Positions 10,458-50,415 of a stretch of 64,000 nt of DNA are shown piece by piece. Origin of the DNA: Squalus acanthias (Eukaryota). Below the pieces are notes generated by a model. That model was not told the origin of the DNA. It worked only from the letters and a program-made list of their open reading frames with translations, and did not search any database. Position 1 is the first letter of the stretch, and each line of letters opens with the position of its first letter. The position numbers were made by a program, and so were the translations under genes. The stretch is from assembly GCA_030390025.1 (NCBI GenBank), contig CM059431.1, forward strand, positions 112,532,001-112,596,000, in the 5' to 3' direction.

Positions 10458-11450
<993 letters not shown>

Positions 11451-25399: not shown

Positions 25400-25830
25400 A
25401 ACATCAACAACAACCTGTATTTATATAGCGTCAAAACATCCCCAAGGCATTTCACAGGAGCGATTATCAAACAAAATTTGACCCCGAGCCACATAAGGAG
25501 ATATTAGGACAGGTGACCAAAAGCTTGGTCGAAAAGGTAGGTTTTAAGGAGTATCTTAAAAGAGGAGAGAGAGGCAGAGAGGTTTAGGGAGGGAATTCCA
25601 GCGCTTAGGGCCGAGGCAGCTGAAGGCACGGCCACCAATGGTGGAGCGATAAAAATCAGGGATTCATAAGAAGCCAGAATTGGAGGAGCGCAGAGATCTC
25701 GGAAGTTTGTAGGGCTGGAGTAGATTACAGAGATAGGGAGGGGGGGGCGAGGACGAAGAGGGATTTGAAAACAAGGATAAGAATTTTTAAAACGAGGCAT
25801 TGCTGGACCGGGAGCCAATGTAGGTCAGTT
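25400..25830 (-). mobile_element. L2-type LINE 3' fragment
   Basis: Reverse-complement homologue of the 2480-2910 segment. Confidence 0.7.
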
Positions 25831-26019
25831 TGCATAAGGGCACTTTCTGTTTATGTTTAAAATGGACATTGTTCAAGTCAAAGGTCTCTCACAGATGCTG
25901 ATACATATCATGGCTGTTATCCATGGCAGACAAGGTGCAAATATACAATTGAATCATTTTGTGCCAAATATATATTGCATGTAGTTATTCCACTGATATA
26001 TTGTAAACTTGCAATAAAG

Positions 26020-26493
26020 AAAATAAATACTTGCATTTATATAGCGCCTTTTACGACCTCCGGATGTCTCAAAGCGCTTTACAGCCAATGAAGTACTCTT
26101 TTGAAGTGTAGTCACTGTTGTAATGTAGGAAACGTGGCTGGCAATTTGCGCACAGCAAGCTCCCACAAACAGCAATGTGATAATGACCAGATAATCTGTT
26201 TTTTTTTAGTGATGTTGATTGAGGGATAAATATTGGCCAGGACACTGGGGATAACTCCCCTGCTCTTCTTCGAAATAGTGGCGTGGGATCTTTTACATCC
26301 ACCTGAGAGAGCAGACGGGGCCTCGGTTTAACGTCTCATCCAAACGACAGCACCTCTGACAGTGCAGCACTCCCTCAGTACTGCACTGGAGTGTCAGCCT
26401 AGATTTTGGTGTTCTAAGTCTCTGGAGTGGGACTTGAACCCACAAGCCTTACCAACTCAGAGCAAGGGTGCTACCAACTGAGCCACAGCTGAC
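26020..26493 (-). mobile_element. tRNA-derived Deu-domain SINE (SacSINE1/DeuSINE-like), full length
   Basis: tRNA-like head (gtggctcagttggtag...gggttcaagtccc), central Deu domain (gagggagtgctgcactgtc...gatgagacgttaaaccgaggcccc) and L2-like tail (gcgctatataaatgcaag). Confidence 0.85.
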
Positions 26494-26711
26494 AATCAAA
26501 ATCCAAGCTCTTGTTGGTTTCATTGTTTAATGCTGTGTTCTTTTACCGGTGTCAGCCAAAACACGCGATGAAACTGCGTAACGTGAAAAAAAATGATCAT
26601 TACTTTTTTAGGATTTTGTAGTCATTAGATTTTGCTAAAAAGTCTCGGCTTGTCAAAAATTGTTTTACAAACCACAACATTGGGAGGCAAAAGCTGGCGA
26701 CCACTGTATCC

Positions 26712-26729
26712 ACCACCAGGTGGCGGCAT
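26712..26729 (+). promoter_or_regulatory. Candidate CTCF site
   Basis: CCACCAGGTGGCGGCA is a near-consensus CTCF core in non-repeat sequence. Confidence 0.5.
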
Positions 26730-29700
26730 ATTAAACTGAAGATGGTTCAAGTGTGGCCTCATGCATCGCAGGTATTTTGGTTTGAACAAACAAAAGTGTA
26801 TGAAAAATGAGAAAGAAGTGAGTTAAACCGTTTATGTGAAAACAGTTATTGTTGTTACAGCAAAAGCAGAATGCAGTTACTAGAACTATTTGACTAGCCT
26901 TTCCGTTCCCCCACCAACTACTCTCTTACTTCTTGCTGGGTGTCCTTCACTTGTAAAGCACTTTGGAACATTTTGTTACATGAAAAGTGCTATCGAGTTG
27001 TAAATTTTTGTAGCGGAGCCAGCTGTTACTACACTTCCTAGTTTCGTTTTAAATTGGGTGTGCTGATTTATGTCGTATTTTTTCTCTACATTTGAATTAG
27101 AATTGATACAAATTGCTTTCTGAGAGCTCGCTCAAGATACTTGTACTTCACAGTTTCCATCAGTTCTCAGCAGCAACTTTTTCATTTTAAGTTTATTTAG
27201 TTTAGCACAAAAGAAAAGTACAATGCTGTTTAAAATCCAGTAAAACACTGGACCTAGTCAGAATTTCTGATAATCTACAATCTCAAAACAAAGAGTACAA
27301 AAAAACTTCTATACAGGTATTGAGTTTACACTCATTCTAGACCCCCTCACTGAGTCAAATACCTATTGTAACAATAACATTTCCATCCTACTTAACAGCA
27401 ACCAAACGAAATGCACCTCATGAAAGGATGTTATTGTCACATCTAACTTTGACTGTATTTCGCTATTATCACAAGAAGTCTAACAGGATATTGTTCAGAA
27501 TTGTTCATCTAATGCAGTGGTTTTCAAACATCTGTCGAAAGGACCAGCTACAAGTACTGACACACTCCCAGCGATCCCTGCCCTAACTTCTGAAAGAGAA
27601 TTGGGGAGAGATTCAGCTTACGGTTTCCCATCTTGCGCCCACAAAACGGTCGTTAGGCCTGCGAATTTCGCGCTGTGATCTGTCACGCCCGATCTGGACC
27701 GGAAGCGCACCGGATGCTATATTGGCTCAAGCGACTTTTAGTCATCCAGGGCATCCCCTTAAATATGCAAATAGGGATCCCACGCCGGTTGTAGGTTCTC
27801 AAGCAGTTCCTTGGAGACATCAGTTCCGCACTAATTCAGCTAGACACTTTAAAGAGCTATTTGGAACGAATCCTATATTTGGAACAAACTGACTTCAGCT
27901 CTAACGTAAACCTCGCCACCTGGGCAGTGAGCGATAACAGGGAGCATCGAGCCAAGCCAGATTCTGCCTTTACCAGCTGTTCTCATGTACATATTTCTAG
28001 CAGGAATTGACAGATAGCAATGAGGATAAACAGTCCTGGCTTATTTAGCCATTCATAGTCCAGGCGCACTAAGGCCAATTATAACATCTGTGGTCCATCT
28101 GTCTTAGTGCACTGGTATTGCATTTAATCGCTCAGCTATTAGAGAAGCTGTATTAATGGATCTAAAGAGTACTACAATAGTTTTGAGGAGAGAAAAAAAA
28201 AAAGTTCAGTTCCTGATCCTTATTGGTATCTAACAATCCCTCTTGGGAGTACAGGTGCTCAAGCACCTGCTAAATGTGGACTGGATTAGGATGCGATTCT
28301 ATCAAGTTTGAATGAACATAAGAAGAACATAAGAAATAGGAGCAGGAGTAGGCCATACGGCTCTTCGAGCCTGCTCCGCCATTCAATAAGATCATGGCTG
28401 ATCTTTGACCTCAACTCCACTTTCTGCCTGATCCCCATCTCCCTTGATTCCCTTAGAGTCCAAAAATCTATCGATCTCACTAAGAACAATGCCTGTCGGT
28501 CTCTCTTTTCTAGGTTAGTACATGAACAATGGTCGCTTGCATAAAGTACCACACGACTGCTGGTGCCCACTGTGTGTCACTAACTTACTGAGATAAACAG
28601 AAAACACCAGCTACCTCAACAAGGACTTGGGATTTCAGCCAATGGTGCCCTGTAAGCAGCTGCTGTTAACCTTTGAGCACTGTCAAGAGTTTGGCCCAGC
28701 TCTGCCAGTGCTCATCGCCTTTCCAGCAAGGAGGACTTCTCATACATGCTTGGGATACTTCAGCCGGATTTTTCTGGTTTGGTGCACCTGGTATAATTTT
28801 GGTGGGGCAGGAGACCCGCCAATGGCCTGCCCCTGACCCCTGACAATTTTCTGGGGTCAGGGTAATTACCATATGTTAGGCAGGTTCCTGATGGGATTGC
28901 CACCCCCGTTGGGGAGCCCACTTAGGGAAGGGTGGGAAAGAGGGAGTGGAAAATGACTGTGGTAGGCCTCAGGCTTCTATCACAGTGTAGCAGGAACAGC
29001 AACCTCTGCAGTAGCTGAAGAGGATGTTCAAATTTCTTATTTAAATTTAAATTTTGCGGGGCTGAGGAGAGAAATCTATTGCCCCATGATTGATCAATGT
29101 TACATTCCCATACCAACTCAGAAATGAGCAGATGTTCCTAGGGTCCAGTGTTGCTATGCTGAAAATGACTAGATATATATTAAACAATATATTTCCCATC
29201 ATTTACATGGCCTCTAAATATATTCACCCATATTTACGTGGTCATCTCCCATCTCCCATAAAATCCTGGAAGTGGCCATTTTCCATTTGCAGCCCGCCCA
29301 CTCCCGCAGAGGTGGTAATCCCGCCAGGAGTTTGACTAAAATACAGTAATTACTCTGACCACGTAAGATTGTCCATTGGGGCAGAAAGCTGACTGACTAG
29401 CTGTCAAAGAATATCCTGCTCCAGCGTGCTGGGGTAACTCCAGTGATGGTAGCACTGAGGTTTGACCCTGATCTGTGCGCTGGTCAAACTTTAATATTCA
29501 GTTTGCTGATGGAATCTGAGCTTTAGCCAAAGGCTCTTGTTTTTTTTTGTTTCCAAAGCGGTTAGGGACCTAAATTTTACTTATGTAGGTTCAGATTGAT
29601 TGCCAACAGTAGAATGATGCAGTTGCGTAAAGACAGGATTAATTATTAAACTTGAAATGGAAGACCAGGTAAGATAAACCTTAAATTAGCACAAGCTCGC

Positions 29701-29888
29701 AGATGCAGATGTCTAAAAGCTAGTATTTAAAACACACTTTTTCAAGGAGTAGATTGAATGCAACTATGACAGTGTAGCATGGATTAAAAGGGTAGCTGAT
29801 GCCACAAACCAGTCACACAAATCCTCAGGTCCACAGAATGATCATAGCAAATGTAAATATGACTTAGAAGGTGGGGAAAATGACAAAG

Positions 29889-30353
29889 TGTCTGCCGGGG
29901 CTCAGTGGGTAGCACACTCGCCTCTGGGTCAGAAGGTTGTGGGCCCAAGTCCCACTCCAGAGACTTGAGCACATAATCCAGGCTGACACTCCAGTGCAGT
30001 GCTGAGGGAGTGCTGCACTGTCGGAGGTGCCGTCTTTCAGATGAGACGTTAAACCGAGGCCCCGTCTGCTTTCTCAGGTGGACGTAAAAGATCCCATGGC
30101 ACTATTTCGAAGACGAGCAGGGGAGTTCTCCCCAGTGTCCTAACCAATATTTATCCCTCAATCAACATAACAAAAACAGATTATCTGGTCATTATCACAT
30201 TGCTGTTTGTGGGAGTTTGCTGTGTGCAAATTGGCTGATGTGTTTCCTACATTACAACAGTGACTACACTTCAAAAAGAACTTCATTGGTTGTAAAGCGC
30301 TTTGAGACGTCCAGTGGTCGTGAAAGGCGCTATATAAATGCAAGTCTTTCCTT
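29889..30353 (+). mobile_element. DeuSINE (SacSINE1-like), full length
   Basis: Same head, Deu domain and tail as 26020-26493. Confidence 0.85.
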
Positions 30354-30790
30354 TCGACGTATCAGACTCAAAGTAGCACTGTAACTCTGCTTGTGTAGGT
30401 GCAGCAGAGAGGTTTGCCCTGACTTTACTGAACTTCCACTAATATCACTGTGAACAGTCCGAGCAGGAATTCCCACACATCCGTTGACGTGACTTAGATA
30501 CTGTGCTGAAATTACAATCTGAGCCATCAGAGAAGCTAAATTGTACTTTCATTAACAAGTGAAATCCACAATGTAATCATTTTCCAATTTTATTGAACTT
30601 TGGCAGTTACAACCATGAACAATTGATGGTGAGAAGCAGCGTCACACAAACAATATTTTGGTTACTTATATATGCCGTGATTCTACTGAAGTATTCCGGG
30701 TACCTTCTTATGGAATTTCATCTGTATCGTAATGTTTATGAAGCCCTTGCATTGACAATTGCAGTTGCATTAATGGACTTTCTTTCCACT

Positions 30791-30982
30791 TTAAACAAGA
30801 TCCAGTACTTCCTTAACCATTTTAGCAACCCCATCAAAAATTTCATGCAACTTTGCTTTGAAATGAAAGCACTTGTTGTCACCACTTTGTTTTTGGTGTC
30901 CACGTGTGTTTCGTGGACATCCTTGCAAATGTGTTGGCATCCGAGCTCTTCAATAACTTTTGCCGTGTCGGCATAAGGCCAC
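30791..30982 (-). pseudogene. GATD3/ES1-like gene, exon 4 (frameshifted)
   Basis: ag|G TGG gives [40 protein letters not shown]. After a 1-nt deletion near 30861 the homologous frame continues [22 protein letters not shown]. Matches the GATD3 C-terminus (WPYAGTA...HVDQKNKVVTTPAFMC...HDGIGAMV). Confidence 0.9.
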
Positions 30983-31164
30983 CTACCAAAGAAGGAAGGA
31001 AAGGGGGCAAGAAACAGCGTTGAAGAAACATTTCAGTATAGTTTACTCAATATTACTATTCTTGACTTTTTTTAATTTGTTACTACATGAGGTGTCACTG
31101 ACTGGTCAGAATCAACTGGAGTGATATAATCAACTAGAAAAGAGCAGCTACCCTTGGTCACATT

Positions 31165-31450
31165 AGAAACATAGAAGATAGGAGCAGGAGTAGGCCATTC
31201 GGCCCCTCAAGCCTGCTCCGCCATTCGATGAGATCATGGCTGATATCATCCAAACTCAGTACCCTGTACCTGCCTTCTCCCCATATCCCTTGATACCTTT
31301 AGCTTTAAGAAATATATCTAACTCATTCTTGAATATATTTAATGACTTGGCCTCAACTACCTTCTGTGGTAGAGAATTCCACAGGTTCACCACTCTCTGG
31401 GTGAAGAAATTCTTCCTAATTTCTGTCCTAAATGGATTACCCCTTCTCCT
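31165..31450 (-). mobile_element. CR1 LINE 3' end
   Basis: FRTEIRKNFFTQRVVNLWNSLPQKVVEA. Confidence 0.8.
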
Positions 31451-32014
31451 TAGGGGTATCTTCCTTTGCATTCCTTAATGTTCCTGTTGTCCACTGGCTT
31501 GTACTCCATTTTGTATCCTCACTACCCACCATCTTTTTCTACCCCTCCCCACTACTGCACAAAGCCTACTTCATACAGTCAACATGAAAATGCCAGTACT
31601 CCTACTGGGCAACTGGTCTCTGACACATGTACCCCTGAGATAGTGAACCGCCTTAACACTTGTGTGTATGGTGGTAAAGATTTTGGAAGTCAGTGTTGTA
31701 AATCATTTTTCTTCTCCCTTCTGATCACTAATCTCCCCTTCTTGTGCAAGCTAACATCAGAAGATAGTGATTATGGTTTTAAGTTATGTATTTTTGTTAA
31801 TTAGATAATGTAATTGGTAAGCATAACTTTATTCCAAAAAGCACATTTAGCAAAAGCATTTCTAAGAAATGAGTTAAAGGCAGCATCTTTCTTGTGTCTG
31901 CATGGATTTAGTTTAATATATTTTTGATATTGTTTTATTGAAAACGTCCAAGTTCTAATAAAATGACATTTCCATATGTAACTATTATTTACAGGCTAAC
32001 AGCATTTTGATGTT

Positions 32015-32510
32015 TATTTTATTCGTTCATAGGATGTGGGCGTCGCTGGCAAGGCCGGCATTTATTGCCCATCCCTAATTGCCCTTGAGAAGGAGGTGGT
32101 GAGCCGCCTTCTTGAACCGCTGCAGTCCTTGTGCTGAATGTGCTCCCACAGTGCTGACTTTGTTGTAGCGGTTATGGTACAACTGAGTGGCTTGTTAGGC
32201 CATTTCACAGGGCAGTTAAGAGTCAACCACATTGCTGTGGGTCTGGGAGTCATCTCTAGACCAGATTGGGTAAGGACGGCAGATTTCCTTCCCTAAAGAA
32301 CATTAGTGAACCAGTTGGGTTTTTCCGACAATCCGGTAGTATTCATGGTCAGCGTTACTGATACAAGCTTTTTAATTCCAAATTTATTTAATTAACTGAA
32401 TTTAAATTCCCCAGCTGCCGTGGTGGGCTTTGAACTCATGTCTCTGGATTATTAGTCCAGGCCTCTGAGATTACTAGTCCAGTAACATAGCCACTATGCT
32501 TCCGTACCCA
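32015..32510 (-). mobile_element. tRNA-headed SINE sharing a CR1-group 3' tail
   Basis: Head gcatagtggctatgttactggactagtaatc; tail shared with the 2975-3410 repeat; second copy at ~53215-53580 (+). Confidence 0.65.
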
Positions 32511-32611
32511 TTCACTCATTCACCTGCGTTACAATGTACATAGATTTGTTGTCCATATTAGCAGCTAGTGATACGATGAACCAAGCATGTAAATGAGATC
32601 TGCATGTGCAG

Positions 32612-32947
32612 TAGGGTTGCCAACCCTCCAGGATTGCCCTGGAGTCTCCAGGATTTGAAGATTAATCTCCGGGACACTGCTGCCAGCAACCCTGGTGAAA
32701 AATCACAGGGGCATTAAAAAAAGTCTGTTTATTAGTTATAAAAATATTGCAGTTGGGGAAAAAAGGCTGTTTGCCTAACAGTGAAGAATCATCCACTCGA
32801 GTCTTGTCGCGTTCCAATTGATGTGGGAAGACGGTGCATCATGAAGATGGACGACCAATGGCGTGAGTGTGGGGGCGGGGCAGGTGGAGGCTGGAGGTCA
32901 TGTGATGAAACCTCCAGGAATACATCCAACCAGAGTTGGCAACCCTA
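32612..32947. mobile_element. hAT-type MITE
   Basis: TIRs tagggttgccaac / gttggcaacccta. Same family as 55327-55583. TSD degenerate. Confidence 0.75.
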
Positions 32948-33001
32948 ATGTGTGATTCCCCCACCGCTCCCCACCACCCTCCCTGTTAAGTTGTAACTTA
33001 C

Positions 33002-33206
33002 CTGCCATCTGCATCTTCCTCGTACCCTACTGTGAGTTTACAGCCAGGGATAAGTCGAGCTACCAGCACAGGAGCAATGCAACTCAGTCCAATGGGTTTC
33101 CCAGCAGCACGAAACTCCTTGCGGGTATCTTCGACCTCCTGATTCACTTTGCAGCCCTTCCCTTCGATTGCCCAGTTGAAAAGGTTTTTCGTGGCTCCAA
33201 AGCCAC
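33002..33206 (-). pseudogene. GATD3/ES1-like gene, exon 3
   Basis: ag|GT GGC gives GFGATKNLFNWAIEGKGCKVNQEVEDTRKEFRAAGKPIGLSCIAPVLVARLIPGCKLTVGYEEDADG(R)|gtaag. 205 nt; phases 1 and 2 fit the neighbouring exons. Not present in the ORF track. Confidence 0.92.
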
Positions 33207-33369
33207 CTTAGAAACCAAAGAGTAACAAGGAGCAGGTTTTCAAATGTGGTGCATAAAAATACATTCGTTTGTTAGCAATTTTAGCACGGATTATTTACTG
33301 TAGTATTGTGAATATTAGAATTTTTTGGGTGAACTTGATGCTTCTCACGGTGAATAATGTTGTCTGTCA

Positions 33370-33897
33370 AATTCTGGGCACCACACTTTAGGGTCGATTT
33401 CAAGGTCTTGGAGAGGGTGTGGGGCAGATGTACCAGAATGGTACCAGGGGATGAGGGACTTCAGTTATGTGGCGAGACTGGAGAAGCTGGGATTGTTCTC
33501 CTTAGAGCAGAGAAGGTTAAGGGGAGATTTAATAGAGGTGTTCAAAATTATGAGGGGATTTGATAGAGTAGATAGGGAGAAACAATTTCCACTGGCAGGC
33601 GGGTCGGTAACCAGAGGACGCAGATTTAAGATAATTGGCAAAAAAATCCTGAGGGGAAATGAGGAGATATTTTTAGCGCAGCGAGTTGTAATGCTCTGGA
33701 ATGCACTAACTGAAAAGGTGGTGGAAGCAGATTCAATAGTAGCTTTTAAAAGGGAATTGGATATATACTTGTAAAGGAAAAATTTGCAGGGCTACGGGGA
33801 ACGAGCGGGGGAGTGGGATTAATTGGATAAATCTTCCAAAGAGCCAGCACAGAGACGGTGGGCCGAATAGCCTCCTGTGTGGTATTCGTCTATGATT
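33370..33897 (+). mobile_element. CR1 LINE 3' fragment
   Basis: [32 protein letters not shown]. Confidence 0.85.
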
Positions 33898-34065
33898 CTC
33901 CCACTTGTATCACCTCCTCTCCTGAAGATGGTGATTTATGCTCGGACACAGTTCTTTCATTGCCAGAAACCATCCTGAATCTGGACCACGTGGTCTTTAA
34001 AGGGTAGAGTTTTGCATTGGATAGTTGCAGGTCCACTACCAACAATTTTCCAACCCACACTTATG

Positions 34066-34770
34066 GGCCTGGGGTTTCCTCCGCATTTGTGCACAGACAC
34101 GCACGTAAACTGGGCGCTAACCAATGACATGGTTTAAAAGACCGCGGAATTTGGGGCGTATGTATCGCATATAACATTACGCCCCAAGTCGCCTCGTACT
34201 TTTACGTCCATCTATCAAACCTTCTGTCCAAATGAATCTCCGCCCACAAAACTGGCCACGCCCCCGGCTCGCAAATGCGAGTATCGTCCAATTACGTTTG
34301 TTCAGTGGGGGAGGGGGGGGATGGTCTCTCATCACAGCGACCAGATTTTCTGGGGCAGCAGAAAACAAAATAATTCTTCTGGTCATTTAAATGCCATTTT
34401 TTGAGGTTAACCTCATTGAGATCCGCGGTGAATTATTTGTTTCTTTGAATTCATTTTTATGTCAAAGTATAAGTCATATTGAAAATTGAAAAATCTTCCC
34501 CGGTTGCAGGTTTCTAAACATGTTGTGCCAGATGTGCTTGACGATGATTAAATGAGTTAAGAATTTTAATGTTAAGACTGAAAGAAGAAATATACTGGTG
34601 TGGGTTCAGCGTTTCCTTGTTTACATTGATTTATGCCCAGTTACGCCCATTTTAAGTTTGGGCGTATTCTAGCGAGGTTGGGAGGATACTTGAGTGTAAC
34701 TTGACATCGGCAAAATTGGCGCAGCTTCGGGCTCAATTTTGGATTGTGGCCACGGAGGAAATTCCAGGAC
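34066..34770. mobile_element. Harbinger-type MITE
   Basis: TIRs ggcctggggtttcctccg / cggaggaaattccaggac. Flanks ATG and ACG (3-bp TSD with one transition). Confidence 0.65.
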
Positions 34771-35324
34771 ACGGTGTGTAAGGTGCCTTACCACTTGTGA
34801 GGACTCGGAAAATCTAGCATTCTATGTGAGCCTAGAGAGTGTTGGCAAGATATTCAACTACACGGGGCATCACAGCCAATCCTGATTATCTCCTCACTTG
34901 ATGCACATTCTTCAGCTGGCGACACTAGCTAGGCCCCGATTTTAACTCTGGGCGGTTGGGTAGTTGGGTGAGTTCGAAACTCATCCGCTGCCCCAGAAAA
35001 CAGGCCCAGGGCAATCTAACTCCGGGGCCTCATCATAATCTCACGGGTGGCTTTCACACCTGATTTGATATCCCGCCCGGAAACCCACCCGTCTACTTCC
35101 AGAATGCCATTTCCAGCGAGTCAGCCAGAAATCTATTTAAAGCGACAATGCACCAATTAAAGCACTGCCTTCCGGCTCCTGGGTAAATTCTGCACAGAGA
35201 AGGGGACTTTCATATGTGTCAGGAAGTCTTCACACAAATAGTGATCAATACTTGGAATGGACTCCCAGATAGAGGAATGGAGGTGAAAGCTCTGGAATCA
35301 TTTAAAAACCAATTGAATGCCGGA

Positions 35325-35770
35325 GCCTCTGAGTCAGAAGGTTGTGGGTTCAAGTCCCACTCCAGAGACTTGAGCACATAAATCTAGGCTGACACTCCAG
35401 TGCAGTGCTGATGGAGTGCTGCACTGTCGGAGGTGCCGTCTTTCGGATGAGACGTTAAACCGAGGCCCCATCTGCTCTCTCAGGTGGACGTAAAAGATCC
35501 CCTGGCACTATTTCAAAGAAGAGCAGGGGAGTTATCCCCGGTGTCCTGGCCAATATTTATCCCTCAATCAACATCTAAAAAAAACAGATTATCTGGTCAT
35601 TATCACATTGCTGTTTGTGGGAGCTTGCTGTGCGCAAATTGTCTGCCGTGTTTCCTACATTACAACAGTGACTACACTTCAAAAAGTACATCATTGGTTG
35701 TAAAGCGCTTTGGGACGTCCGGTGGTCATGAAAGGCGCTATATAAATGCAAGTCTTTCTTTTTTCTTTTT
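35325..35770 (+). mobile_element. DeuSINE (SacSINE1-like)
   Basis: Deu domain and L2-like tail. Confidence 0.85.
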
Positions 35771-36405
35771 AGGGTATTTCTGGATGGCTAAAGTAAGATT
35801 GGTCGAATCGACTTTCTCATCAGTAACTATCTTGTGATAAAGGAATCCAGAGAAGAGGCAGTAAAAATCACTGAAGCCTAACTTATTCTTCTATTCTTGT
35901 TGTTTAGACGAGAATTAATAGTATAATGACTGAAAATATTACCATTTACTCTAATGCAGCAGCTGTACTTTTTTTTAGTTGGCCTTAATGTGGGAAAAGC
36001 TGTGTCATCATGAGTTGTGTCCTGTGATTCACTGTTAGCACTGTTGTAACTTCCTGTGTGTGTGTGTATTTCACTGACCCAGGGTAATGTACAGTGCTAC
36101 CAACCACCTTTGTTCTGTAGCTCACCTTGGCGCATTCATTGATGTCAGCTTCCTGAAAGGGATTTGGATGGTTGTATGGGTTTCTGTGCTCCTGTCACAA
36201 CAGGCAGGTAGGAGGGCAGGAACATTAAGATAACAAATTAACTGCAGTACTTTATTTGAGAGTGTTTTGATGCTGATATTTGGTTCACAAATGGAAAGCA
36301 TTCTATTCCCTAGTATGAACATCTCTCAGCTTGATGAGTACAAATATCATGAAAACAAAATGCATTTTAATTTTCTCAGCTAATTTGAATGCCACAGCGT
36401 GACAT

Positions 36406-36868
36406 GAAGAAAGAAAGAATGACTCGGATTTATATAGCGCCTTTCATGACCTCAGGACGTCTCAAATTGCTTTACAGACAATAAAGTACTTTTTGAAGTA
36501 TAGTTGTCGTTGTAATGTGGGAAACGCAGCAGCCAATTTGCACACAGCAAGCTCCCACAAACAGCAATGTGAAAATGACCAGATAATCTGTTTTGGTGGT
36601 GTTGCTTGAGGGATAAATGTTGGCCAGGACACCGGGGATAACTCCCCTGCTCTTCTTTGAAATAGTGCCACGGGAACCAACTGAGAGGGCAGACGGGGCC
36701 TCGGTTTAAAGTCTCTTCCGAAAGACGGAACCTCCGACAGTGCAGGATTTCCTCAGTACTGCACTGGAGTGCCAGCCTGGATTTTGTGCTCAAGTCTCTG
36801 GAGTGAGACTTGAACCCACGATCTTCTAACTCAGATGTGAGCGTGCTACCAACTTAGCCACAGCTGGC
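36406..36868 (-). mobile_element. DeuSINE (SacSINE1-like)
   Basis: Reverse-complement copy of the same SINE. Confidence 0.85.
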
Positions 36869-37144
36869 ACACAAAAGGGAATTGTTCTCCAGCTCTCTAC
36901 CGAATCTTTTGAAAATAATGAGGGTGCAGTTACGCTGACAATTAATTTGCTATCAGTTTGCTGCAGTTCTGGAGAGCTGATTTACACTTTCAGAAAACCC
37001 AGTATAACTGTTGATCAAAGCTTTAATGGCTCAAGAGGCATACCAACCACTAAAGTGATATGAGAGAGCAACCAGGTAGAACCACAGCAAAACCAAATGG
37101 AATTTACCAAGCAGTTTATGATCTGAGTTGACAAACTACTGTAA

Positions 37145-37240
37145 CAGTTCTGACGAAGGGTCATCGACCTGGAACGCTAACTCTGTTTCTCCTCGATGCT
37201 GTCTGACCTGCTGAGTGTTTCCAGCATTTTCTGTTGTTGT
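37145..37240 (+). mobile_element. Penelope-like short repeat (family A) with degenerate hammerhead motif
   Basis: AGTT-CTGACGA-A-GGGTC-ATC-GACCT-GGAA-CGCT-AACT; the GAAA box is mutated. Confidence 0.65.
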
Positions 37241-37825
37241 TACTGTAACAGCATGCTGCAGAATAGATTAGTGGGGACATTAATGTTTATTGCACCCGAT
37301 ACATGGCTATATGGAGTTGCAATCTTATTTGATTATATTTAATTTTCTTAGCACTGTCCACATTGTTCTAATCAATGTTTAAGTTTATTTTATGCAATAA
37401 ATTGCAGAAAATGATGGAGATGGTACTAATCTCATTTTTGTTTTAGGTTTGCATATTCCAATGACAAATGCTTCTGCTGACAATGGACTGATTTACTTTA
37501 GGATGAATTTACACTACAAACGTAAAATCAGCGCGAAGCACTTTCACTTCACACCAACACTGCATTAATCGGGTAGAATTTCTAGTCCTTGTCGATGTTG
37601 AGGTACCTGGCACACCGTAAGTGCAGGTCATAAAACTGCAGGCCCACTGCTGCCCATAGTGCGAATGCAGGCTATATCCAGAATCAGGGCCTGACCTGAT
37701 GTTAGAGCAAAGTAGAGTGAGACTGCTCCACTTTGCTGCAGAGTCAGGTAGGGCTTTAACAGCTGATTTGCACCATGGTAAGGGATGTAGGCTTCGGGTG
37801 TGAAACCACCAAGTGTTGTGGGTGA

Positions 37826-38069
37826 ATAAAAAACAAAAATGCTGGGAGAGCACTCAGCAGGTCGGGCAGCATCTGTGGAGAGAGAAACAGAGTTAACGTT
37901 TCAGGGCAATGACCTTTCGTCAGAACGCACGTTCCGTTCTGACGAAAGGCCATCGACCTGAAACGCTAACTCTGTTCCTCTCTCCACAGATACTGCCTGA
38001 CCTGCTGAGTATTTTCAGCATTTTGTGTTTTTATTTCAGAATTCCTTAATCCGCAGTATTTTGCTTTTG
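37826..38069. mobile_element. Inverted dimer of family A Penelope-like repeat with two hammerhead motifs
   Basis: Foldback centred near 37931. Minus strand 37892-37926 reads GTT-CTGACGA-A-AGGTC-ATT-GCCCT-GAAAC-GTT-AAC. Plus-strand motif at 37936-37970. Confidence 0.75.
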
Positions 38070-38324
38070 TATAAGTCTTGTGTGTTTCTCTTTTGGGTCC
38101 CCCCAAGTCCGCCGAGGACTCAAATTGTCGCTCTGACTGCACTCCAAATTTAATAGACGACTGCCCAGCTTGGAGTGTAAATGTACCTTGAAAGTCTGAA
38201 GGTTTTTAGAGAAATGATAGTCTGACCATTTGACTTGAGGGTCTCTTGATATCTGTGTTCTACCAATGTGGCTTCTATGTACTGCTGCATCTCTATTTAT
38301 AGCTGAGTGCTGTGTTTTTCTGAC

Positions 38325-38496
38325 TTGGAATGATGAGCATATCATGCTGAGTCACGTCTAGCTTGTTCAAGCTCTGGATGTTCCCTCGAGCAATACGGGC
38401 ACTCTCTGCCAATACATTACCAGTCTCTGTGCTTGGCTTCCCACTTGAGTGGTCAACCACTTGTAACTGATCACAGTCAGGTGCAAACATGTTCAC
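38325..38496 (-). pseudogene. GATD3/ES1-like gene, exon 2
   Basis: ag|[57 protein letters not shown](A|gt). Contains the ES1/ElbB signature [11 protein letters not shown]. 172 nt. Confidence 0.92.
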
Positions 38497-38637
38497 CTAC
38501 AAAGAAGCAGAGAGAGAGTAAGCAGAAGACTGCTTTAGTTTATAAACAAATATCTTTCATGTAAGTTTGTTCCACGCACTCAGATGTGCAACACAACATA
38601 GTGTAATGATTACATCATTGATTACAGTGTAAAGAAA

Positions 38638-38712
38638 TAATGTCATTGCTGGCCTTCGTATTCAGAAAACAGAGGCAACGTCATGATTTCAAGTGTGGAT
38701 CATTACACTTAA
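38638..38712 (+). repeat. 75-bp direct repeat, copy 1
   Basis: 67/75 identical, without gaps, to 39904-39978. Confidence 0.85.
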
Positions 38713-39903
38713 CATAAAAATCAAATTTCTTTTTCCCTTGGTTGCATTCCTGATTTTTTTTTCCCTCTCCTTTCTACTGATTCCCCTTCTGGGATACCTA
38801 ATGGAAATTTTTCAAAGGACTTTTTTTGGCAGATGGAGTATCTAAACTGCATTTGCATCATGTGATGTGGCACAATTATAATTTTGCACTGATACTGAAA
38901 TAAAGCGTTAACGCTCTCCTATGACCAAATTATGAGGCCTTGACCCAAATTTACCATCCTCAACACGAAAATCAGAGGTACCGTACCACCACACTGTACA
39001 ATAGTGACAATGGAACGAGCCATTGACAGTTTAATCAGAGCTTTTTAAATATTTATTCTCAGGGTGTGGGTTATATTGGCAAAGTGGCATTTATTGTCCA
39101 TCCCTAGATGTCCTCAGAAGGTGGTGGGTCTTCTTCCTGAAATGCTGCAGTCCTTATGGCAATGGTGCTACCAAAATGGTGATCCAGGATATTGCCCTAT
39201 TGACAATGAAGCAACAGTGACATTTGCCAAAATCAGGGTGGTGTGTGACTTGCAAGGGGATTTGGAGGTGATGATGTTCCCAAGGCATTGCTGCTCAGCA
39301 TTAGAGGTCACAAGATAGGGACGTGCTGTCAGAGTAACCTTGGTGAGTTGCTAAGGCTCATTCTGTAGATCATACATAGAGCAGCCACGGGTGGTGGAAG
39401 AGATGGATACTGAGTCCAATAGCAGAGGCACCGAAAAAAGTGACCTGCTCGTCCTGGATGGTTTGAGCTACTTGAGTGTTAATGTGACTGTTCAGTACCT
39501 CACATCTTTGACTTTTCTCTATCAAAGCCTCTGCACGGGTAACATTGTTTGTCCTAGTTAATGTACGTTCTTCTAACAATTTCTCCTTCTCCTCCTGTTC
39601 CCTTTTAGAGACATCTTTCAACCTCTACACTCTTTAAACATTTATTTGAGCTGGACATTAATGGAAAGAAATCTTAACAAAAAAGTAATTTTACAATTAT
39701 TGCCAATTTTGCATTCATAAAATGTGAAAAAGTTGGTTTACATTATAAATTTGATTAACATGCAACTTCCATAGCCAATGGCTTAACTCTTCAAAAGTCA
39801 CAAGAAAGAGTTTACTTACCAATTAAGATGGAAATTTGAATCACTTTCAATAGCTCGGAGCAACACTGATCCTTAACATTTTAATTAAATTCTTTGACGG
39901 AAG

Positions 39904-39978
39904 TAATGTCATTGCTGACCTTCGTATTCAGCAAACAGGGGCCACGTCATGATTTCAAGGGTGGATCGTTATAATTAA
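39904..39978 (+). repeat. 75-bp direct repeat, copy 2
   Basis: 67/75 identical, without gaps, to 38638-38712. Confidence 0.85.
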
Positions 39979-40010
39979 GACTGCAGATCAGATTTGTTCT
40001 TGTGTCTTAC

Positions 40011-40120
40011 CTCTGCCCCAGCCCTGCTCAGATGCACCAGAATTGCTGAAACTTTATGAATTTCAGTGCCAAATCATAGACCCCACAGCCAGCCAGGATC
40101 AATGCCACACGTGCCGCCAT
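40011..40120 (-). pseudogene. GATD3/ES1-like gene, exon 1 (frameshifted)
   Basis: ACAATGG start context. MAARVALILAGCGVYD, then two extra T (40071-40072), then GTEIHKVSAILVHLSRAGAE|gtaag. Read straight from the ATG, the frame stops at codon 31 (TGA). Confidence 0.92.
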
Positions 40121-40484
40121 TGTAGTTGCAGAAAAATAACCAAGAGGTTAAATCTCACAAAGATATTTCCAATAGGGTGCAGGAGTGATGTCTGTTGAAG
40201 GATCACTTGTGGCAAAGTTAAGAGGTCTCTGTTACAAAATGACACAAACAAGGTGGTCAGGTGCACAGGCTTTAAATTCTCTCAGGAACAAGGGTGGAGA
40301 TATGTCTCCTAGCAATGAGATACCATGGGGACCTCTACATCCGTGATAAGTGTCAATTGAATGATAAGGATCAACACTTCAGTTTACATTTGACTGAACA
40401 AAATGTGTTAGCCGTTCCTGTACTTTGCATTTGTTACTACTCAAATTAAAAGAATGATGATTTTGTGTTTGTAATGGTTCTGAA

Positions 40485-40651
40485 CAATGTTCCCCTTAAT
40501 TTTTTGGGGGGGTGTGCGGCCCCTTTGAGGGGCAGCGCGGCCCATTCACAGTTTTGCGCATGTGCGAGATTTAACATTAGAAAAGCCGGTCCCGGGTTGT
40601 GTGTGGGGCCAGCAGAGAGCTGCGTGGCCGCGCGGCTTCGAGGGAACGTTG
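40485..40651. mobile_element. hAT-type MITE (167 bp)
   Basis: TIRs caatgttccc / gggaacgttg. Perfect 8-bp TSD gttctgaa (40477-40484 and 40652-40659). Confidence 0.85.
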
Positions 40652-41006
40652 GTTCTGAACTATTAACTTATTAAAAACATATGAGTTTTCCATCCTGCAT
40701 TGATACTAGTGCCAACTCGAATAAAAACACAACACAAATTGTGTTTGCAAAAACAACATAGTAAACTTTACACGGCTGCTCTCTCAGTATGGAGCCTCAC
40801 TTAACGGGAGCGCAGAGTGAACAATCACTGGAAAACTGTGAGTGCCATAAATTGGGTCCGCCGATCTCCATATTGTTTAAGATTTGTAACTGGAGAGGAT
40901 CCAGGATGAAACTGACCCCTGCCCAGCTCCACTAGCCACTGCATTTCCCTTCCCTCTGACAGTTTTGTTTTCCACTTAACATCTCTTTGATTGGACCCTT
41001 CTGTTT

Positions 41007-41479
41007 CAGCTGTGGCTCAGTTGGTAGCACGCTCGTCTCTGAGTCAGAAGGTTGTGGGTTCAGGTCCCACTCCAGAGGCTTGAGCACATTAAAGCTAGGC
41101 TGACACTCCAATGCAGTGCTGAGGGAGTGCTGCGCTGTCGGAGGTGCCGTCTTTCAGATGAGATGTTAAACCGAGGCCCTGTCTGCTCTCTCAGGTGGAT
41201 GTAAATGATCCCATGGCACTATTTAGAAGAAGAGCAGGGGAATTATCCCTGGTGTCCTGGCCAATATTTATCCCTCAACCAACATAACAAAAACAGATTA
41301 TCTGGTCATTATCATATTGCTGTTTGTGGGAGCTTGTTGTGTGCAAATTGGCTGCTGCGTTTCCCACATTACAACAGTGACTACACTCCAAAAGTACTTC
41401 ATTGGCTGTAAAGCCCTTTGAGACATCTGGATGGTCGTGAACGGCGCTATATAAATACAAGTCTTTCTTTTTTCTTCTT
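41007..41479 (+). mobile_element. DeuSINE (SacSINE1-like), full length
   Basis: tRNA-like head, Deu domain and tail. Confidence 0.85.
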
Positions 41480-42950
41480 GGTCCAATCTACAGTTCACCA
41501 TTTTAGTTATTCGCAACTGGCTTTTGTATGACTACTTCTCACTTCCTCTTGTCTCATAAATATTTCCATTTGGCCTTCAGATGATTTTGTTTTCCTTATG
41601 GTTTACTGTATTTCCCCTTTCACAATAATGTGCTTCCGTTCCACAGCAACAACAACAACTTGCATTTATATAGCGGCCTTAACATTGTAAAACGTCCCAA
41701 GGCTCTTCACAGGAGCGTTATCAAACAATTTTTTTTTTAATCCAACGTTCAATAAAATGGTAATGAAAATTCTATCTTCTTGTGTTTTCTATTCTAGATC
41801 AGCTTCCCACCTGATTCTCCGTGGAGCTAGAGTGTTGCACAACAGTGTTGTGTTTTCGGCCTTAGGCCTATGTGTTTATGTATCAGGACAGGAAACATCA
41901 TCAAAACGCTATGTGCTCGCCCTATCTTTTGGCTAATTTCTTTTGCATGTGCTCTAAACATCTCTTCCCTCCACCTCCTGAGAGGGGCAAAACAACAGGG
42001 AACATGATGTCCATACCTTTAACGATCTTAAATAACTGCATCAGGTGCACTCTGTTTTGATCTCTCCAGAGTGTACAAACCCAAAGCATCAAGTCTATGT
42101 TCCTCGTTCAATGATCTCAGGCTGGGAGATCATCCTTGTTATCCTTCTCTGTACCTTCTCAAGAGTCAATATATTCTGCCTGAGGTGGGAAGACCAAAAA
42201 CTAGACACAGTATCCAAAAGCCTTATTTAACCCTATTAATGTGATCCGACCTTTGTAATGAATCATCCGGGTAATATTGAATCAAACTATGCCGTAATCA
42301 CAAGAACTCAATTGGTCACCCACTTCTAGGTTGCCAATCAGTTCTGATGGACTGCTAATATGAAATCGAACATCGGCTATGGTGTTCTGCATCATATCTT
42401 GTGTTATGAATTAGTAACTGATTGCAGCTTTGAAATTGGTTATATTTCAAGTCCCAAGTGGTTGAGGGTCATAGTCATAGAGTTATACAGCACAGAAAGA
42501 GGCCCTTCGGCCCATTGTGTCCGCGCCGGCCATCAAGCCCTGTCTATTCTAATCCCATTTTCCAGCACCTGGTCCGTAGCCTTGTATGCTATGGCGTTTC
42601 AAGTGCTCATCTAAATGCTTCTTGAATGTTGTTAACTCATAGCCTGGTGTCAGGCTAAATGCTGGACGATCAATGACGTCCAGTGTTGGAACACCTCAGA
42701 AGTGGTGGTCTTTGCCGAGTTCCACCCCCCAAAAAAAAATCCCCCCAAGTTTCTCTGGTGAAATGAGTTAACATCTGGCGGCTGGAGACCTGCTGCCAGA
42801 TGCTGGAGGAAAAGGGAAATGAGTATTCTTGATGATGTTTTTTCAAAGAGGCAGAAGTTAACTCAGACTTGGAGAAAAACAGTCCATAATGGAGGATAGA
42901 AGCAAATGTCAATGTTAAGAAAGAAAATGCAAGTAGCAGAGAAACACATT

Positions 42951-43840
42951 GGCCGGAATTTTGCTGGTGCTCAGGGGGCGGGTTTGGAGGCGGGACATCC
43001 GGCAAAATCGCAAAGATTGACAGCGGGCAGGAAACCTGCTGTCAACCCACCTCCAATCAATCTTTCCAGGTGTCGGGTCCCCGATTTGCACATGGACCCG
43101 ACACCTAGCGGCAGGAAGAAGATTATAGGCACTTAACTGCTTGTTAACAGGTTGTTAACAGGCAGTTAAGAGGCTTCTTGCAATTTTGACAGGTCTACTG
43201 CGGGCTTCCCGACGTCCGGACACCACGCCAGGTAAGTGGCGTGCTGTAGGTCTACTGTAATGTTTCTGCATTGATGACAGCTGCAGAAGTGCTGTGAAGG
43301 ATCCAATGGTACACTGGTGAGTTTCGGAGGTAAGAAAATGTTGGGAAAATCATTTTTAATGTATTTAGACTTTTTTGTAGGTGACAAGTTTGGAATTGTT
43401 TCTGTAGTCCCACCTCATTGGGAGAATCTCTCTCACCAGTGACCGATCACTTCTGTAACCTTACCTGCAGCTGCCATCTGTTCTAGCCTAAGGAGGGAGT
43501 CACTGGAGAGCCTGGATGCAAGGGCTCACCTTTGTACAATGATTGTCAGTGTTTGCAGCACCTCAATGCAGTCAAACACTGAGAAATCAGCTGTCAAAAA
43601 AAATTGTGCGTGGCCCCTTTAAGAAAACCGGCAGCTGACGCGTCATCAGCTGACGCGTCATCAACTGACATCATCTGACACTGGCTTTCTCTCAATTGGC
43701 CGGCAAGCCCGCAGGGCAGGCTTAACAAAGCCAATTGACATAAAATCGCGTCTGTGCATCGGACGTCTTTGGGGGCGGGATTGGAACCCGGAAGGCAGCT
43801 GTCCCACCCCCAAGCCGCAGCGAGAGGAAAAATCATGGCC
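42951..43840. mobile_element. Harbinger-type non-autonomous element
   Basis: TIRs ggccggaatttt / aaaatcatggcc. 3-bp TSD ATT. Left end resembles the elements starting at 13897 and 15720. Confidence 0.75.
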
Positions 43841-43922
43841 ATTATCTCCAATTAGTTATAACATAGTCATCTCAGTTAAAATAAAGAAATTATGCAACTA
43901 TTGTTAGCCTTTCTCTTACTAC

Positions 43923-44667
43923 TGTTCAGACCTCGAGAATTACGAATTTAGCGTAACAATGACAGACAAGGATGTGATCAATAAAATTGGTCTTTATTCA
44001 CACTACAGTTCAAAATTCAAGTGTACAATCACACTCAATATGCTCCCAATTTACCCGTACATAACAGTATTTCCCAGCAATTTATACGCTACCTCTGGGC
44101 GATTTATATTCCAAGTCAACCGTACATAAAAGTACCCCTTTTAACAATATCTAAGCTCTCTGTCCGACTTTCATACATACTCCTTTATCTCTGGGTGATC
44201 AATCCAGAAAAGTTGTAGGTCAAAACGTAGACTGGCCAGCCTCCTCTGTTCGTCTGTTCTTCCGTTCGGTCTTCTTTGTCCTTTCTGTGTTCTGAATTTC
44301 CCGCCCCTGGGTTTATAGGGCCTTTCTGCCGGCCTCCCTCGTATATCACTGTCTGCCTCCCTCTGAGAGGTCAGTTTCACTCCAAACCTTCCCTGATTGG
44401 AGTTCCTTCCACATGACATGTTCCTGTTCCTGTGAGGTGTGTGAGGGGGGGGCGGGGGTGACTTCCTTGTCAATCATGTTCCTCCTTCCTGTCCATGTGG
44501 CCTTTCAAACAAAGGACTATATGTTGACCACCAGGCAAAGGACCCCCTGCTGACTTCCACCATTTTTTGTCTTCACAAACAAATAACACATGCTGACTTC
44601 CACCATTTTGAATCCGTCTGTAACCATTTCACAATTCATTCTGAACTTCGATCGCCACACGGTAACA
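43923..44667 (-). mobile_element. Possible solo LTR
   Basis: TG...CA termini (tgttacc...gaaca on the minus strand). Minus-strand TATA-like ctataaa (~44315) lies upstream of AATAAA (~43995). No TSD found. Confidence 0.35.
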
Positions 44668-44718
44668 GTGGTTTTGTTACAATTTTCAGAATCTTGCACT
44701 ATTTTAGTTAATATTAGC

Positions 44719-44887
44719 CATGATGTGGAGATGCCGGTGTTGGACTGGGGTGGACAAATGTGAGAAGTCACACAACACCAGGTTATAGTCCAACAGTTTT
44801 ATTTGAAATCATAAGCTTTCGGAGCGCTGCTCCTTCGTCAGGTGAAGTGAAGAAATGTATATTGGCACAGCATATATATGCGCAAAT
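44719..44887 (-). mobile_element. Penelope-like terminal repeat (family B) with hammerhead motif
   Basis: Minus strand TCAC-CTGACGA-A-GGAGC-AGC-GCTCC-GAAA-GCTT-ATGA; near-identical to the 51579-51839 arms. Confidence 0.75.
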
Positions 44888-47346
44888 CGGGGACCCGACT
44901 CCTAGGTCTCTGAACATAATAAACTGAAATATTTTGTGCTTGAAAGTGGACTATTTGTTCTGTAAAAGGAGTGAAAACTAAAATAGATTTACAAAAATAA
45001 TGGTAGCACCTTTGACTTTCAGGGCCTTAAAGTTATATGACTTCAGCACAACTTCTGGATCTGAGTGTCTGACAAAGCATAGCTCAACGCTCAGGCACGC
45101 ACATGTGGTATAAACTATACTGGCCAAGGTTTTCCCACCAGTGGTAAATTGTCAATTTTGGATGAGCTGTGAGGCCCAATTTTCCAAGATTTGCACTTGC
45201 CCATGGATTAGGCACAATAGTGCTCATACAGGTGAACAGTGAAATACAAATTGCATAATTTTATTGTTTCCTGCCACCCTCTCCCCCCCCCCCCCCCCCC
45301 ACTGCAATTGTCATGCAGTTATTGTTGAATGTGTTGGAAACATGGGTCAGTGCTCTGTGCATGCTTTCCAGCTTATCTTCTTGAAGAGGCACCAAATGAA
45401 CATTTACTTTAGGTCCGTGCCTTGTTTGCAGGAAGATTACATGGGGGTGAATTCCCCCTGGGGTCCTCCCACTTGACTGCCGTACCATTGGTGGAAGACC
45501 TGCAGAACCCCAAGAAAAATGGTGTAAATGCCATTTGCATCATTTGTCCAGGGTTTCCGCAGCTCTTCCACTGAAGTTATGGTGGACAAGAGGGAGAACA
45601 TCCGTGGAAATTCATCCTCCATATGTGTAGAAGGTGCTGACGCTGACTCTTGGCACTTCTTCTGATACCATTGAACTTCTTTCTCATTTAATCCCAAGTA
45701 CGACAAAAAGTGGGAAGGGTGAATTCAGAGGCTTCCTTCAAGCTCATGTATGGTATCCTTTCTCTTCATTTCCTCATTCATTCATTCCCTCACACACAGG
45801 CCACATAGTAGCATTTCAGTGTAACGCACTGCAATTACTTCCCATGTGTAACTACGGTCCAAGGAGCACACATTATTATAAAGTACGTTTTTTCTTGCTC
45901 CTCCAGGTACCTGAGAGAAGGAGCTGGACCAGTCGACTGTACAGCCTTGATGTAGCACATCACAACACCCAGCATCAACCACTCCCATAGCAGCAAGCAC
46001 CAGTGGATATACATCCGCTCCGGGGGGATCTATTAATTAGTAGTAGGAGAGGGACGCGTTAAGCATGAGTGAGAAAGTGCAGATGGAATTTTATGAGATA
46101 CAACCTGCTGGCTAAAGGGCCAGCATGAGGCCTCTTTCAGTTGCTGTGCCAAGGGATTTAAATCCTGCAGGGCCTGTCTACAAATCTGGGGAATCAGCCA
46201 TAATGCAGAGCTTCAATTACCTCATTGTTGCCCAGTGATCTGCTCCCACACAGTTCTCTGGCCACGCTGAAGGAGCTCCAAGCAGCAGAGGAATGGCAGA
46301 AATTGGCACAGATGATGCAGTTCTCTTGCAACATTCCAAGCTCTTTGCCACTCCAGTCAAAGGAGAATCACCCAATGTAAAGTGCAGGCAGTCACTTTTT
46401 TTTTATTCATTCGTTCGTTCGTTCGTGGGATGTGGGTGTCACCAGCAAGGCCGGCATTTATTGCCCATCCCTAATTGCCCTAGAGAAGGTGGTGGTGAGC
46501 CTCCTTATACAACTGAGTGGCTTGCTAGGCCATTTCAGAGGGCAGTTAAAAGTCAACCACATATAGGCCCAGACCAGGTATGGATTTTTACAACAATTCA
46601 TTTGCAGGGCCATCAAGGACATGGAAAGTCTGGGTTGTCAGTGCCTGCTGTGACATCAGCTACCAACAAAATTATTCTACATTTCCCCCCCCCCCCCGCA
46701 CCCGCACCCCAACTCCACTAAGGGTAATGAGACTGCGGGATACCTCTGGCATATGGTGTGGGTCAGTAACTGTGAGGGTGTGCATGGGGAGAGAGGCTGG
46801 AAAGTCAGAGAGAGGAAAAATTGGATGTGTGAAGATCCTAAGAACAACATTAAGGGGCATAGGGTAGCTTGGCAGTGAAGGGCAAAGAGAAGAATACAAG
46901 CTCCTGGGGACAAAAACAGAAGACAAGTCTGAAGCTGTTCAGAAAGGGAAAACCTGTGAAGGGAGGTAAAAATTATTCAATGTATAGTACTATGTAATGG
47001 GTAAGATATTCCAGAATTCCTGTATTTTGTACATATTCAGGGGCGGGGCTATTCTCGAAGGATGGGGTGGGGCAGGGGGCTTAAAGTCCAGATTTGGCCA
47101 ATTTAGCCCCCAGAATCACAAATTTAGTTGAGGATCCAGGATCAGAGCCCTGAGGGGAGGCCCAGGGGGCAAAGTGCGATGTAGCATATTGAAGTGCCTT
47201 CTGTAAGTAGTTCCACCCCTCTACCTCCTCCTCCTCCCAATGGAGAGCACATAAATCGACCAAACTCAAAGTGATTGGGAGGGGTCTTGAACCCACCCTT
47301 TACCCCCAATACCTCCACCTGCATGTATTTGTTATGTTAGAAATCA

Positions 47347-48132: not shown

Positions 48133-48234
48133 AAAATATTATTTGTCGGGATATATATTTGAGTTGCTGAGGGAGCACTATAACCACTTTTTCTACTTGA
48201 CTATATTTGAGCATTTTTTTAAATTATTTGTTCC

Positions 48235-50115: not shown

Positions 50116-50195
50116 GTTTGAGTCAATCAGAAAAGTCTAACAGAATTTTTGTGCTGCAGGCGCATTTTTAAAATGTGAAGGCTTTATGCAATACA

Positions 50196-50415
50196 TAACA
50201 AAAGCAAAATACTGTGGATGCTATAAATCTGAAATAAAAACAGAAAATGCTGGAAATACTCAGCAGGTCAGGCAGCATCTGTGGAGAGATAAACAGAGTT
50301 AACCTTTCAGGTCAATGAACTTTCGTCAGAACTAGGACATCAACCTGAAAGGCTAACTCTTTTTCTCTCTCCACAGATGTTGCCTGACCTGATGAGTGTT
50401 TCCAACATTTTCTGT
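50196..50415. mobile_element. Inverted dimer of family A Penelope-like repeat
   Basis: Foldback centred near 50333. Minus strand AGTT-CTGACGA-AAGTTC-ATT-GACCT-GAAAG-GTT-AACT. Confidence 0.7.

Follow-up and report, generated by a model that had tools for sequence, protein, structure and literature searches.

Vertebrate homologues of the GATD3/ES1 family, part of the DJ-1/PfpI superfamily, fall into three groups: mitochondrial GATD3 (GATD3A/C21orf33, zebrafish ES1), a short si:ch211-153b23.5 group, and the zgc:162944 group, here also called gatd3l. E. coli ElbB (PDB 1VHQ, 1OY1) is an intact bacterial relative. The accessible text of PMC8935817 names E62 and C176 as the catalytic residues of GATD3A and reports that C176A lowers activity; the correspondence of E62 with E18 of DJ-1 and the roles of DJ-1 G74/G75 are given in the accessible parts of PMC8935817 and PMC12135873. 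The literature searched yielded no functional study of gatd3l/zgc:162944, and PMC4772128, in its accessible part, deals with zebrafish ES1 and holds nothing on this subfamily. Here we describe a locus of the dogfish Squalus acanthias within a 64,000-nucleotide stretch of contig CM059431.1 (assembly GCA_030390025.1, positions 112,532,001 to 112,596,000; the window). Between KCTD12 and CLN5 it carries a minus-strand four-exon gene that, judged by its sequence, is a decaying paralogue of the GATD3/ES1 family (Table 1). The locus is very probably a unitary pseudogene of an ElbB/ES1-type gene, inactivated before the split of four organisms (A–D) compared below and neutral since. Databases misname the vertebrate GATD3-like subfamily that it represents, which is unstudied and has the itaconate gene IRG1/ACOD1 as its neighbour.

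All three introns of the gene have GT-AG borders, with phases 0/1/2 once two surplus bases are discounted. The spliced coding sequence of 679 nt comprises 225 codons and a stop, with two bases gained and one lost. The gained bases, at 40071-40072, stand between D16 and G17 and shift the frame to a stop at codon 31, while the base missing near 30861 falls in codons 202–203. Read through, the 225-residue product is identical at 189 of 225 positions to XP_067841592.1 (P0003), an intact protein apparently of Heptranchias perlo. The tblastn matches to exons 2, 3, 4 and 1 (E 3e-30, 3e-29, 1e-22 and 3e-10) are collinear, so that the resemblance is not due to chance, and a family profile search of the window gave six matches, all on these four exons, which amounts to one copy. 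Stop-to-stop frames of at least 80 residues include those of exons 3 and 4 and not that of exon 2. The coordinates and the tblastn matches agree with what had been proposed from the letters alone (hereafter the sequence-only reading), namely four minus-strand GT-AG exons in phases 0/1/2 that encode an ES1/ElbB-type protein of about 225 residues, broken by these two frameshifts.

Table 1. Features of the window; positions count from its first letter.
Feature	Position	Strand	Remarks
Exon 1	40011..40120	-	ATG at 40120; codons 1-36; 2-base insertion, E22K, premature stop
Exon 2	38325..38496	-	codons 37-94; R62G, G94S
Exon 3	33002..33206	-	codons 94-162; A99T, H126R, C135S, A142V, K144R, E150K; Cys136 kept; DGR motif at exon end
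Exon 4	30791..30982	-	codons 162-225 and stop; 1-base deletion near 30861; G215A
Candidate old poly(A) signal AATAAA	30589..30594	-	about 200 bases past the stop; consensus match only
KCTD12, single-exon open reading frame	10458..11315	-	285 residues; synteny anchor; groups with Pristiophorus japonicus
CLN5, two coding exons	within 56194-56427 and 57522-57770	+	Pfam PF15014, E 5e-30 and 8e-45; synteny anchor
Myb/SANT-like domain, then a 327-residue open frame	16735-18693	-	PF13873, E 2e-12; open frame without a good Pfam match
Broken non-LTR retrotransposon	48196-50122	-	endonuclease and reverse transcriptase fragments
Coding-looking stretch of several short frames	45260-46040	-	no Pfam or PDB match, weak Atlas hits; possibly nothing

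At E22, R62 and G94 the consensus residue is present in 121 of 121 homologues, and the window has E22K (codon 40055-40053), R62G and G94S; the sequence-only reading had picked out the same three changes as GTEIHK, GNVL and PSG. The G94S change is the final base of exon 2 and leaves a weak-looking donor. Among 30 eukaryotic and distant homologues 21 columns do not vary, and the window departs from five of them (E22, R62, G94, A99 and M202). E22K and G94S alter the active-site Glu and the Gly-Gly oxyanion loop, both present in the ancestor; the PGG motif is the putative counterpart of DJ-1 G74-G75. At the nucleophile elbow, all 119 homologues compared read CCIAP, with a Cys at 135, and the window reads SCIAP. 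The window keeps C136, which does not vary among 30 diverse homologues (30 of 30), is the Cys conserved in ElbB and lines up with the Cys in plant structures of the DJ-1 family. The sequence-only reading was therefore right that an elbow Cys survives, and had overlooked C135S, by which one of two cysteines is lost.

In two canonical GATD3 proteins the equivalent of C135 lies 114 residues past the conserved Glu, so that C135 corresponds to GATD3A C176 if that Glu is E62. By the numbering in the accessible text of PMC8935817, the window would then have lost the equivalents of both named catalytic residues, E62 and C176. Of the CC pair, GATD3A C176 seems to be the first member, and ElbB and distant homologues conserve the second; this could explain why C176A only reduced activity.

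Whether the exon-1 lesion is real was addressed with read contigs covering exon 1 and its flank (39985-40330). Four of 24 matching runs were compared, representing four organisms from three studies, and the insertion and E22K are present in all four: the best-matching organism A and its relatives B, C and D. No run among the 24 is recorded as RNA; five that may be RNA have shares of 0.06-0.12 and bear neither way on expression. Organism A (run X5) covers 39985-40170 without a difference or a gap. Organisms B (run X6), D (run X9) and C (run X8) are each represented by one contig over the stretch, with 10 of 345 (2.9%), 11 of 345 (3.2%) and 21 of 341 (6.2%) differing letters, the 341 bases of C being free of gaps; at 40071-40072 none of the three shows a gap, and in all of them the E22K codon matches that of the window. 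They are probably close relatives. In organism C the shifted frame stops at codon 28. In organisms B and D one more base is inserted at 40080-40084, about 10 bases upstream of the 2-base insertion, and the stop falls at codon 16. We considered whether the net gain of three bases revives the gene in B and D and rejected this: the downstream frame is restored, but the stop lies between the two insertions. The exon-1 pattern had no match in metagenome contigs of the Joint Genome Institute.

The coding sequence on the window branch shows no trace of constraint. Taking as near-invariant those columns conserved in at least 95% of homologues, we count changes on this branch at 12 of 91 near-invariant columns and at 15 of 133 others (Fisher p 0.68). 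Near-invariant columns take 13 of the 36 differences between the window and XP_067841592.1; in eight control pairs of intact proteins they take 14 of 237 (p 2e-6). Three of these pairs share one sequence, so that independence is incomplete. Among A–D, exon 1 has accumulated nine nonsynonymous and two synonymous changes on 79.7 and 28.3 sites; neutrality fits (p 0.74), omega of 0.2 and of 0.3 are rejected (p 0.003 and 0.017), and the exon diverges no slower than its flank. The decay that the sequence-only reading had suspected from the missense pattern is hence real, with the insertion in all four runs compared and near-invariant columns changing as often as the rest.

The timing it had proposed, a relatively recent and lineage-specific inactivation, has to be given up. 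A frameshift and an E22K codon common to four organisms mean that the loss is old and shared, and the three relatives that carry them differ from the window by the 2.9% to 6.2% given above. The near-invariant columns put the neutral divergence accumulated after the loss at 0.061 per site (95% confidence interval 0.031-0.107), about 1.9 times (1.0-3.3) half the A–C distance. With the epaulette-shark mutation rate of 7e-10 per generation found in the accessible text of PMC10587355, this corresponds to at least 110 million years for generation times of at least 5 years, within a range that extends beyond 1,000 million years; such a rate transfers poorly between lineages, and the range, too wide for dating, is usable only against a "recent" loss. 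The locus is a long-dead pseudogene and not one now dying.

The closest intact counterpart, XP_067841592.1, resembles the window gene in its 225 residues, its start, its DGR motif and its apparent location on the KCTD12 chromosome (112,544,244 bases); it differs in being intact, whereas the window copy has two frameshifts and has lost E22, R62, G94, A99 and C135. XP_067841592.1 matches ElbB over residues 3-225 (E 8e-56), and through this full-length match and the collinear exons the assignment to a GATD3/ES1-family paralogue, also made by the sequence-only reading, stands. With Pfam PF01965, exons 2-4 alone give no match, and an intact Heptranchias isoform (P0001) scores 26.5 against a gathering cut-off of 26.6; a single-sequence AlphaFold model of XP_067841592.1 was uninformative (predicted local distance difference test score 35). 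ElbB shares the motifs GCGVYDG.EIHE, PGGFG and CIAP and has a non-Cys residue at the C135 position. Mitochondrial GATD3 and zebrafish ES1 share the catalytic motifs, E62 and C176 (PMC8935817, accessible text) falling on E22 and C135, both mutated here. They differ in forming a separate tree group and in an N-terminal extension of about 34-46 residues: the conserved Glu is residue 22 in the window gene, which has no transit peptide, and residue 56 or 68 in canonical GATD3 members.

The gatd3l/zgc:162944 group is found in gar, bowfin, sturgeon, teleosts, lizards, birds (including chicken NP_001269129.1), monotremes and marsupials. Its members are mostly of 225-226 residues without a transit peptide and, outside teleosts, carry the DGR motif; unlike the window gene, teleost members have an N-terminal extension, and the tree does not join them to it. 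Linkage of this group to the KCTD12/FBXL3 block is indicated by scaffold length or annotation in gar, bowfin, wrasses and marsupials; in gar, the family member (P0096) and KCTD12 lie on scaffolds of equal length (806,429 bases), from which linkage is deduced. On this synteny we hold with good confidence that the window gene is the gatd3l/zgc:162944 orthologue. The DGR motif was rejected as proof of orthology by itself, its 13-residue spacing being found in canonical GATD3 as well. In RefSeq the marsupial members (P0095, P0131, P0133) go under the name "F-box/LRR-repeat protein 3 isoform X3", and some members of a cyprinid GATD3 cluster are named Mx isoforms; the FBXL3 and Mx names look like artefacts of naming after a neighbouring gene.

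The si:ch211-153b23.5 paralogue (P0061 and 15 shark, skate and ray proteins) shares the fold family, the length and the lack of a transit peptide, but is a separate clade (16 of 16 rows in a tree made by a quick method; Shimodaira–Hasegawa approximate likelihood-ratio test (SH-aLRT) 100) and is intact across elasmobranchs. In Heptranchias it lies on another chromosome (66.8 Mb vs 112.5 Mb). One shark has three near-identical copies (P0125-P0127) on one 107.9-Mb contig, and Xenopus has several. In the bird Sapayoa this paralogue (P0049) and a KCTD12-family gene (P0440) share a 311,755-base scaffold, an apparent co-location which suggests that both short paralogues sit in whole-genome-duplicated KCTD12-IRG1 blocks.

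The ancestral protein cannot be made from this locus. It would have been a 225-residue ElbB/ES1-type protein without a transit peptide, encoded in a KCTD12-(IRG1)-CLN5-FBXL3 block, and presumably worked in the cytosol as a Cys/Glu hydrolase of reactive carbonyls, in the way of a glyoxalase III or a deglycase; the cytosolic location is suggested because it lacks the extension of canonical GATD3. The elbow Cys, Glu22 and the Gly-Gly loop would serve it as C106, E18 and G74/G75 serve DJ-1 (PMC12135873, accessible text). By analogy with GATD3A (PMC8935817, accessible text), clearing glyoxal-type carbonyls or early glycation adducts is its slightly favoured job. The true function of DJ-1 itself is called controversial in the accessible text of a 2026 review (PMC13333263). 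Before the A–D split, the 2-base insertion, E22K or an earlier lesion inactivated the gene, neutral drift followed, and B and D later gained their additional frameshift. Translation of any transcript would now end at codon 31, or at codon 28 or 16 in the relatives. Three introns lie downstream of these stops, and nonsense-mediated decay would be the likely fate of the transcript.

Redundancy with the other short paralogue, retained in sharks and rays, is the simplest reason for the loss, and the earlier loss of IRG1 in cartilaginous fish may have helped. Eight cartilaginous fish, none of them hexanchiform, are reported without IRG1 in the accessible text of 10.1101/2022.06.17.496652, where human KCTD12 is described as syntenic to IRG1 and a GAT-domain gene as accompanying IRG1L and invertebrate IRG1. 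Salmonella induces a chicken ES1 homologue (LOC422305, chromosome 4) together with IRG1, according to the accessible text of PMC4256799; given its chromosome 4 location, we rejected it as the orthologue of the window gene, and it is probably the si:ch211 paralogue. A functional tie of the gene to itaconate is only a lead. Neutral loss in a redundant family is ordinary and old unitary pseudogenes are common, and no phenotype follows.

Several observations weigh against an ancient, neutrally decaying gatd3l orthologue of this function, and some of them lend themselves to other accounts of the locus. The read comparison spans 346 of about 9,330 bases, the exon-4 deletion and the changes in exons 2-4 are known from the assembly alone, both indels touch TTT runs, and run X5 is possibly the same sample as the window. 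Even so, an intact gene with two assembly errors at short T runs is practically out of the question: the insertion stands in the contigs of three other organisms, and homopolymer errors do not account for the 12 changes at near-invariant columns. The sequence-only reading had allowed for assembly error next to the T runs; for exon 1 the four runs dispose of this, and in exon 4 the loss of a G is a simpler account than that of a T: relative to XP_067841592.1, a lost G requires one deletion and one substitution, a shortened T run two substitutions. The gene retains its start codon and all six splice dinucleotides and has no in-frame stop, which, with 84% amino-acid identity to the intact orthologue, might speak for a recent, species-specific inactivation. 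Intact signals and absent stops are unremarkable at this divergence (P 0.40 for the former and 0.24 for the latter), and with a lesion shared at up to 6.2% divergence and the neutral distance since loss set against half the A–C distance, we give such an event hardly any credence. Nor is the locus at all likely to work still, whether by an exon 2-4 protein begun at Met39 or by a spliced non-coding RNA. Met39 persists, as do all GT-AG sites, and the RefSeq-predicted Heptranchias isoform X2 (P0001), of 187 residues, lacks exon 1. Against this, exons 2-4 hold 11 of the 12 changes that the window branch shows at near-invariant columns, the product would lack E19 and E22 and end in about 40 out-of-frame residues, and exon 1 diverges among A–D no slower than its flank.

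Orthology and function meet objections of their own. In the tree, the window gene and XP_067841592.1 are sisters at 100/100 on a long stem (0.34), not settled among the three subfamilies; in the best tree the pair stands next to the si:ch211 group (70/75), and a joint group with the zgc:162944 clade is not recovered and not rejected (approximately unbiased test, p-AU 0.173). Synteny in other species is apparent co-location on a scaffold and not gene order, and the search for further copies covered the 64-kb window of the genome. The locus might on these grounds be a dead local duplicate, or a left-behind parent with a working copy elsewhere, or belong to a fourth subfamily instead of being the gatd3l orthologue. 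This we consider improbable, as against it stand the single copy in the window, the syntenic position, the presence of introns and the fact that, outside Heptranchias, no protein exceeds 69% identity to XP_067841592.1 among the best 120 of 7581 matches. Placental mammals keep IRG1 but are not known to have a gatd3l-type gene, which weakens a strict link to IRG1. ElbB is reported, in the accessible parts of PMC12135873 and PMC11301059, to be without cyclic 3-phosphoglyceric anhydride (cPGA) hydrolase and esterase activity, which leaves the ancestral substrate uncertain.

For the unitary pseudogene, the distribution of intact copies has a bearing on shark relationships. Counting annotated proteins and not genomes, an intact copy is on record for Heptranchias only; the 90% cluster of XP_067841592.1 has two members, and all 16 other elasmobranch short proteins retrieved belong to the si:ch211 clade. 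KCTD12 is on record in ten other chondrichthyans (Pristiophorus, Heterodontus, Cetorhinus, Mustelus, Chiloscyllium, Scyliorhinus, Narcine, Hemitrygon, Rhinoraja and Callorhinchus). For Callorhinchus, neither short paralogue is among the matches listed (best 120 of 7581). Judged by titles and the openings of abstracts, no published description of this loss was found in a search that left most subscription journals outside. Retention in Heptranchias only is a single elasmobranch loss if Hexanchiformes branch first, and at least three losses otherwise. A 2026 preprint calls shark monophyly unresolved and reports a topology from ultraconserved elements in which sharks are paraphyletic with Hexanchiformes first (bioRxiv 10.64898/2026.02.13.705779). 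For the shark-monophyly node the shared exon-1 scar may serve as a cheap presence/absence character.

A single loss some 250-280 million years ago, in the lineage ancestral to all sharks and rays other than Hexanchiformes, with the insertion and E22K to be seen in galeomorph or batoid remnants too, is a speculative reading that we think unlikely to hold. It needs a neutral rate of about 2.4e-10 per site per year, which is compatible with the short KCTD12 branch. If true, the loss would be a shared rare genomic change in support of paraphyletic sharks with Hexanchiformes first. The gene family seems prone to loss, so that a shared lesion would count and mere absence is weak evidence; to meet this 2-base insertion again in what is left of the gene in a galeomorph or a batoid would be strong evidence. 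Heptranchias may, further, still have a remnant of IRG1, the gene next door.

The KCTD12-CLN5 interval of the window (11500-30790 and 40130-57500) gave no match to the Pfam domain of IRG1/ACOD1, MmgE/PrpD. The search took in stop-to-stop frames of 42 residues or more outside repeats, 158 of 158 on the plus strand and 142 of 156 on the minus strand, and a heavily decayed remnant could escape it. A fuzzy scan for eight IRG1/ACOD1 motifs found chance-level matches only, and with neither approach showing one, an IRG1/ACOD1 remnant in the interval was set aside. The missing match agrees with the report that cartilaginous fish have lost IRG1. The KCTD12 protein of the window is 94% identical to that of Heptranchias perlo and groups with that of Pristiophorus japonicus at 96/93, which on this one gene points to a probable squalomorph host outside Hexanchiformes; an identical KCTD12 protein was absent from the collection searched. 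The Myb/SANT-like domain and the open frame that follows it are probably the helper gene of a Harbinger-type transposon.

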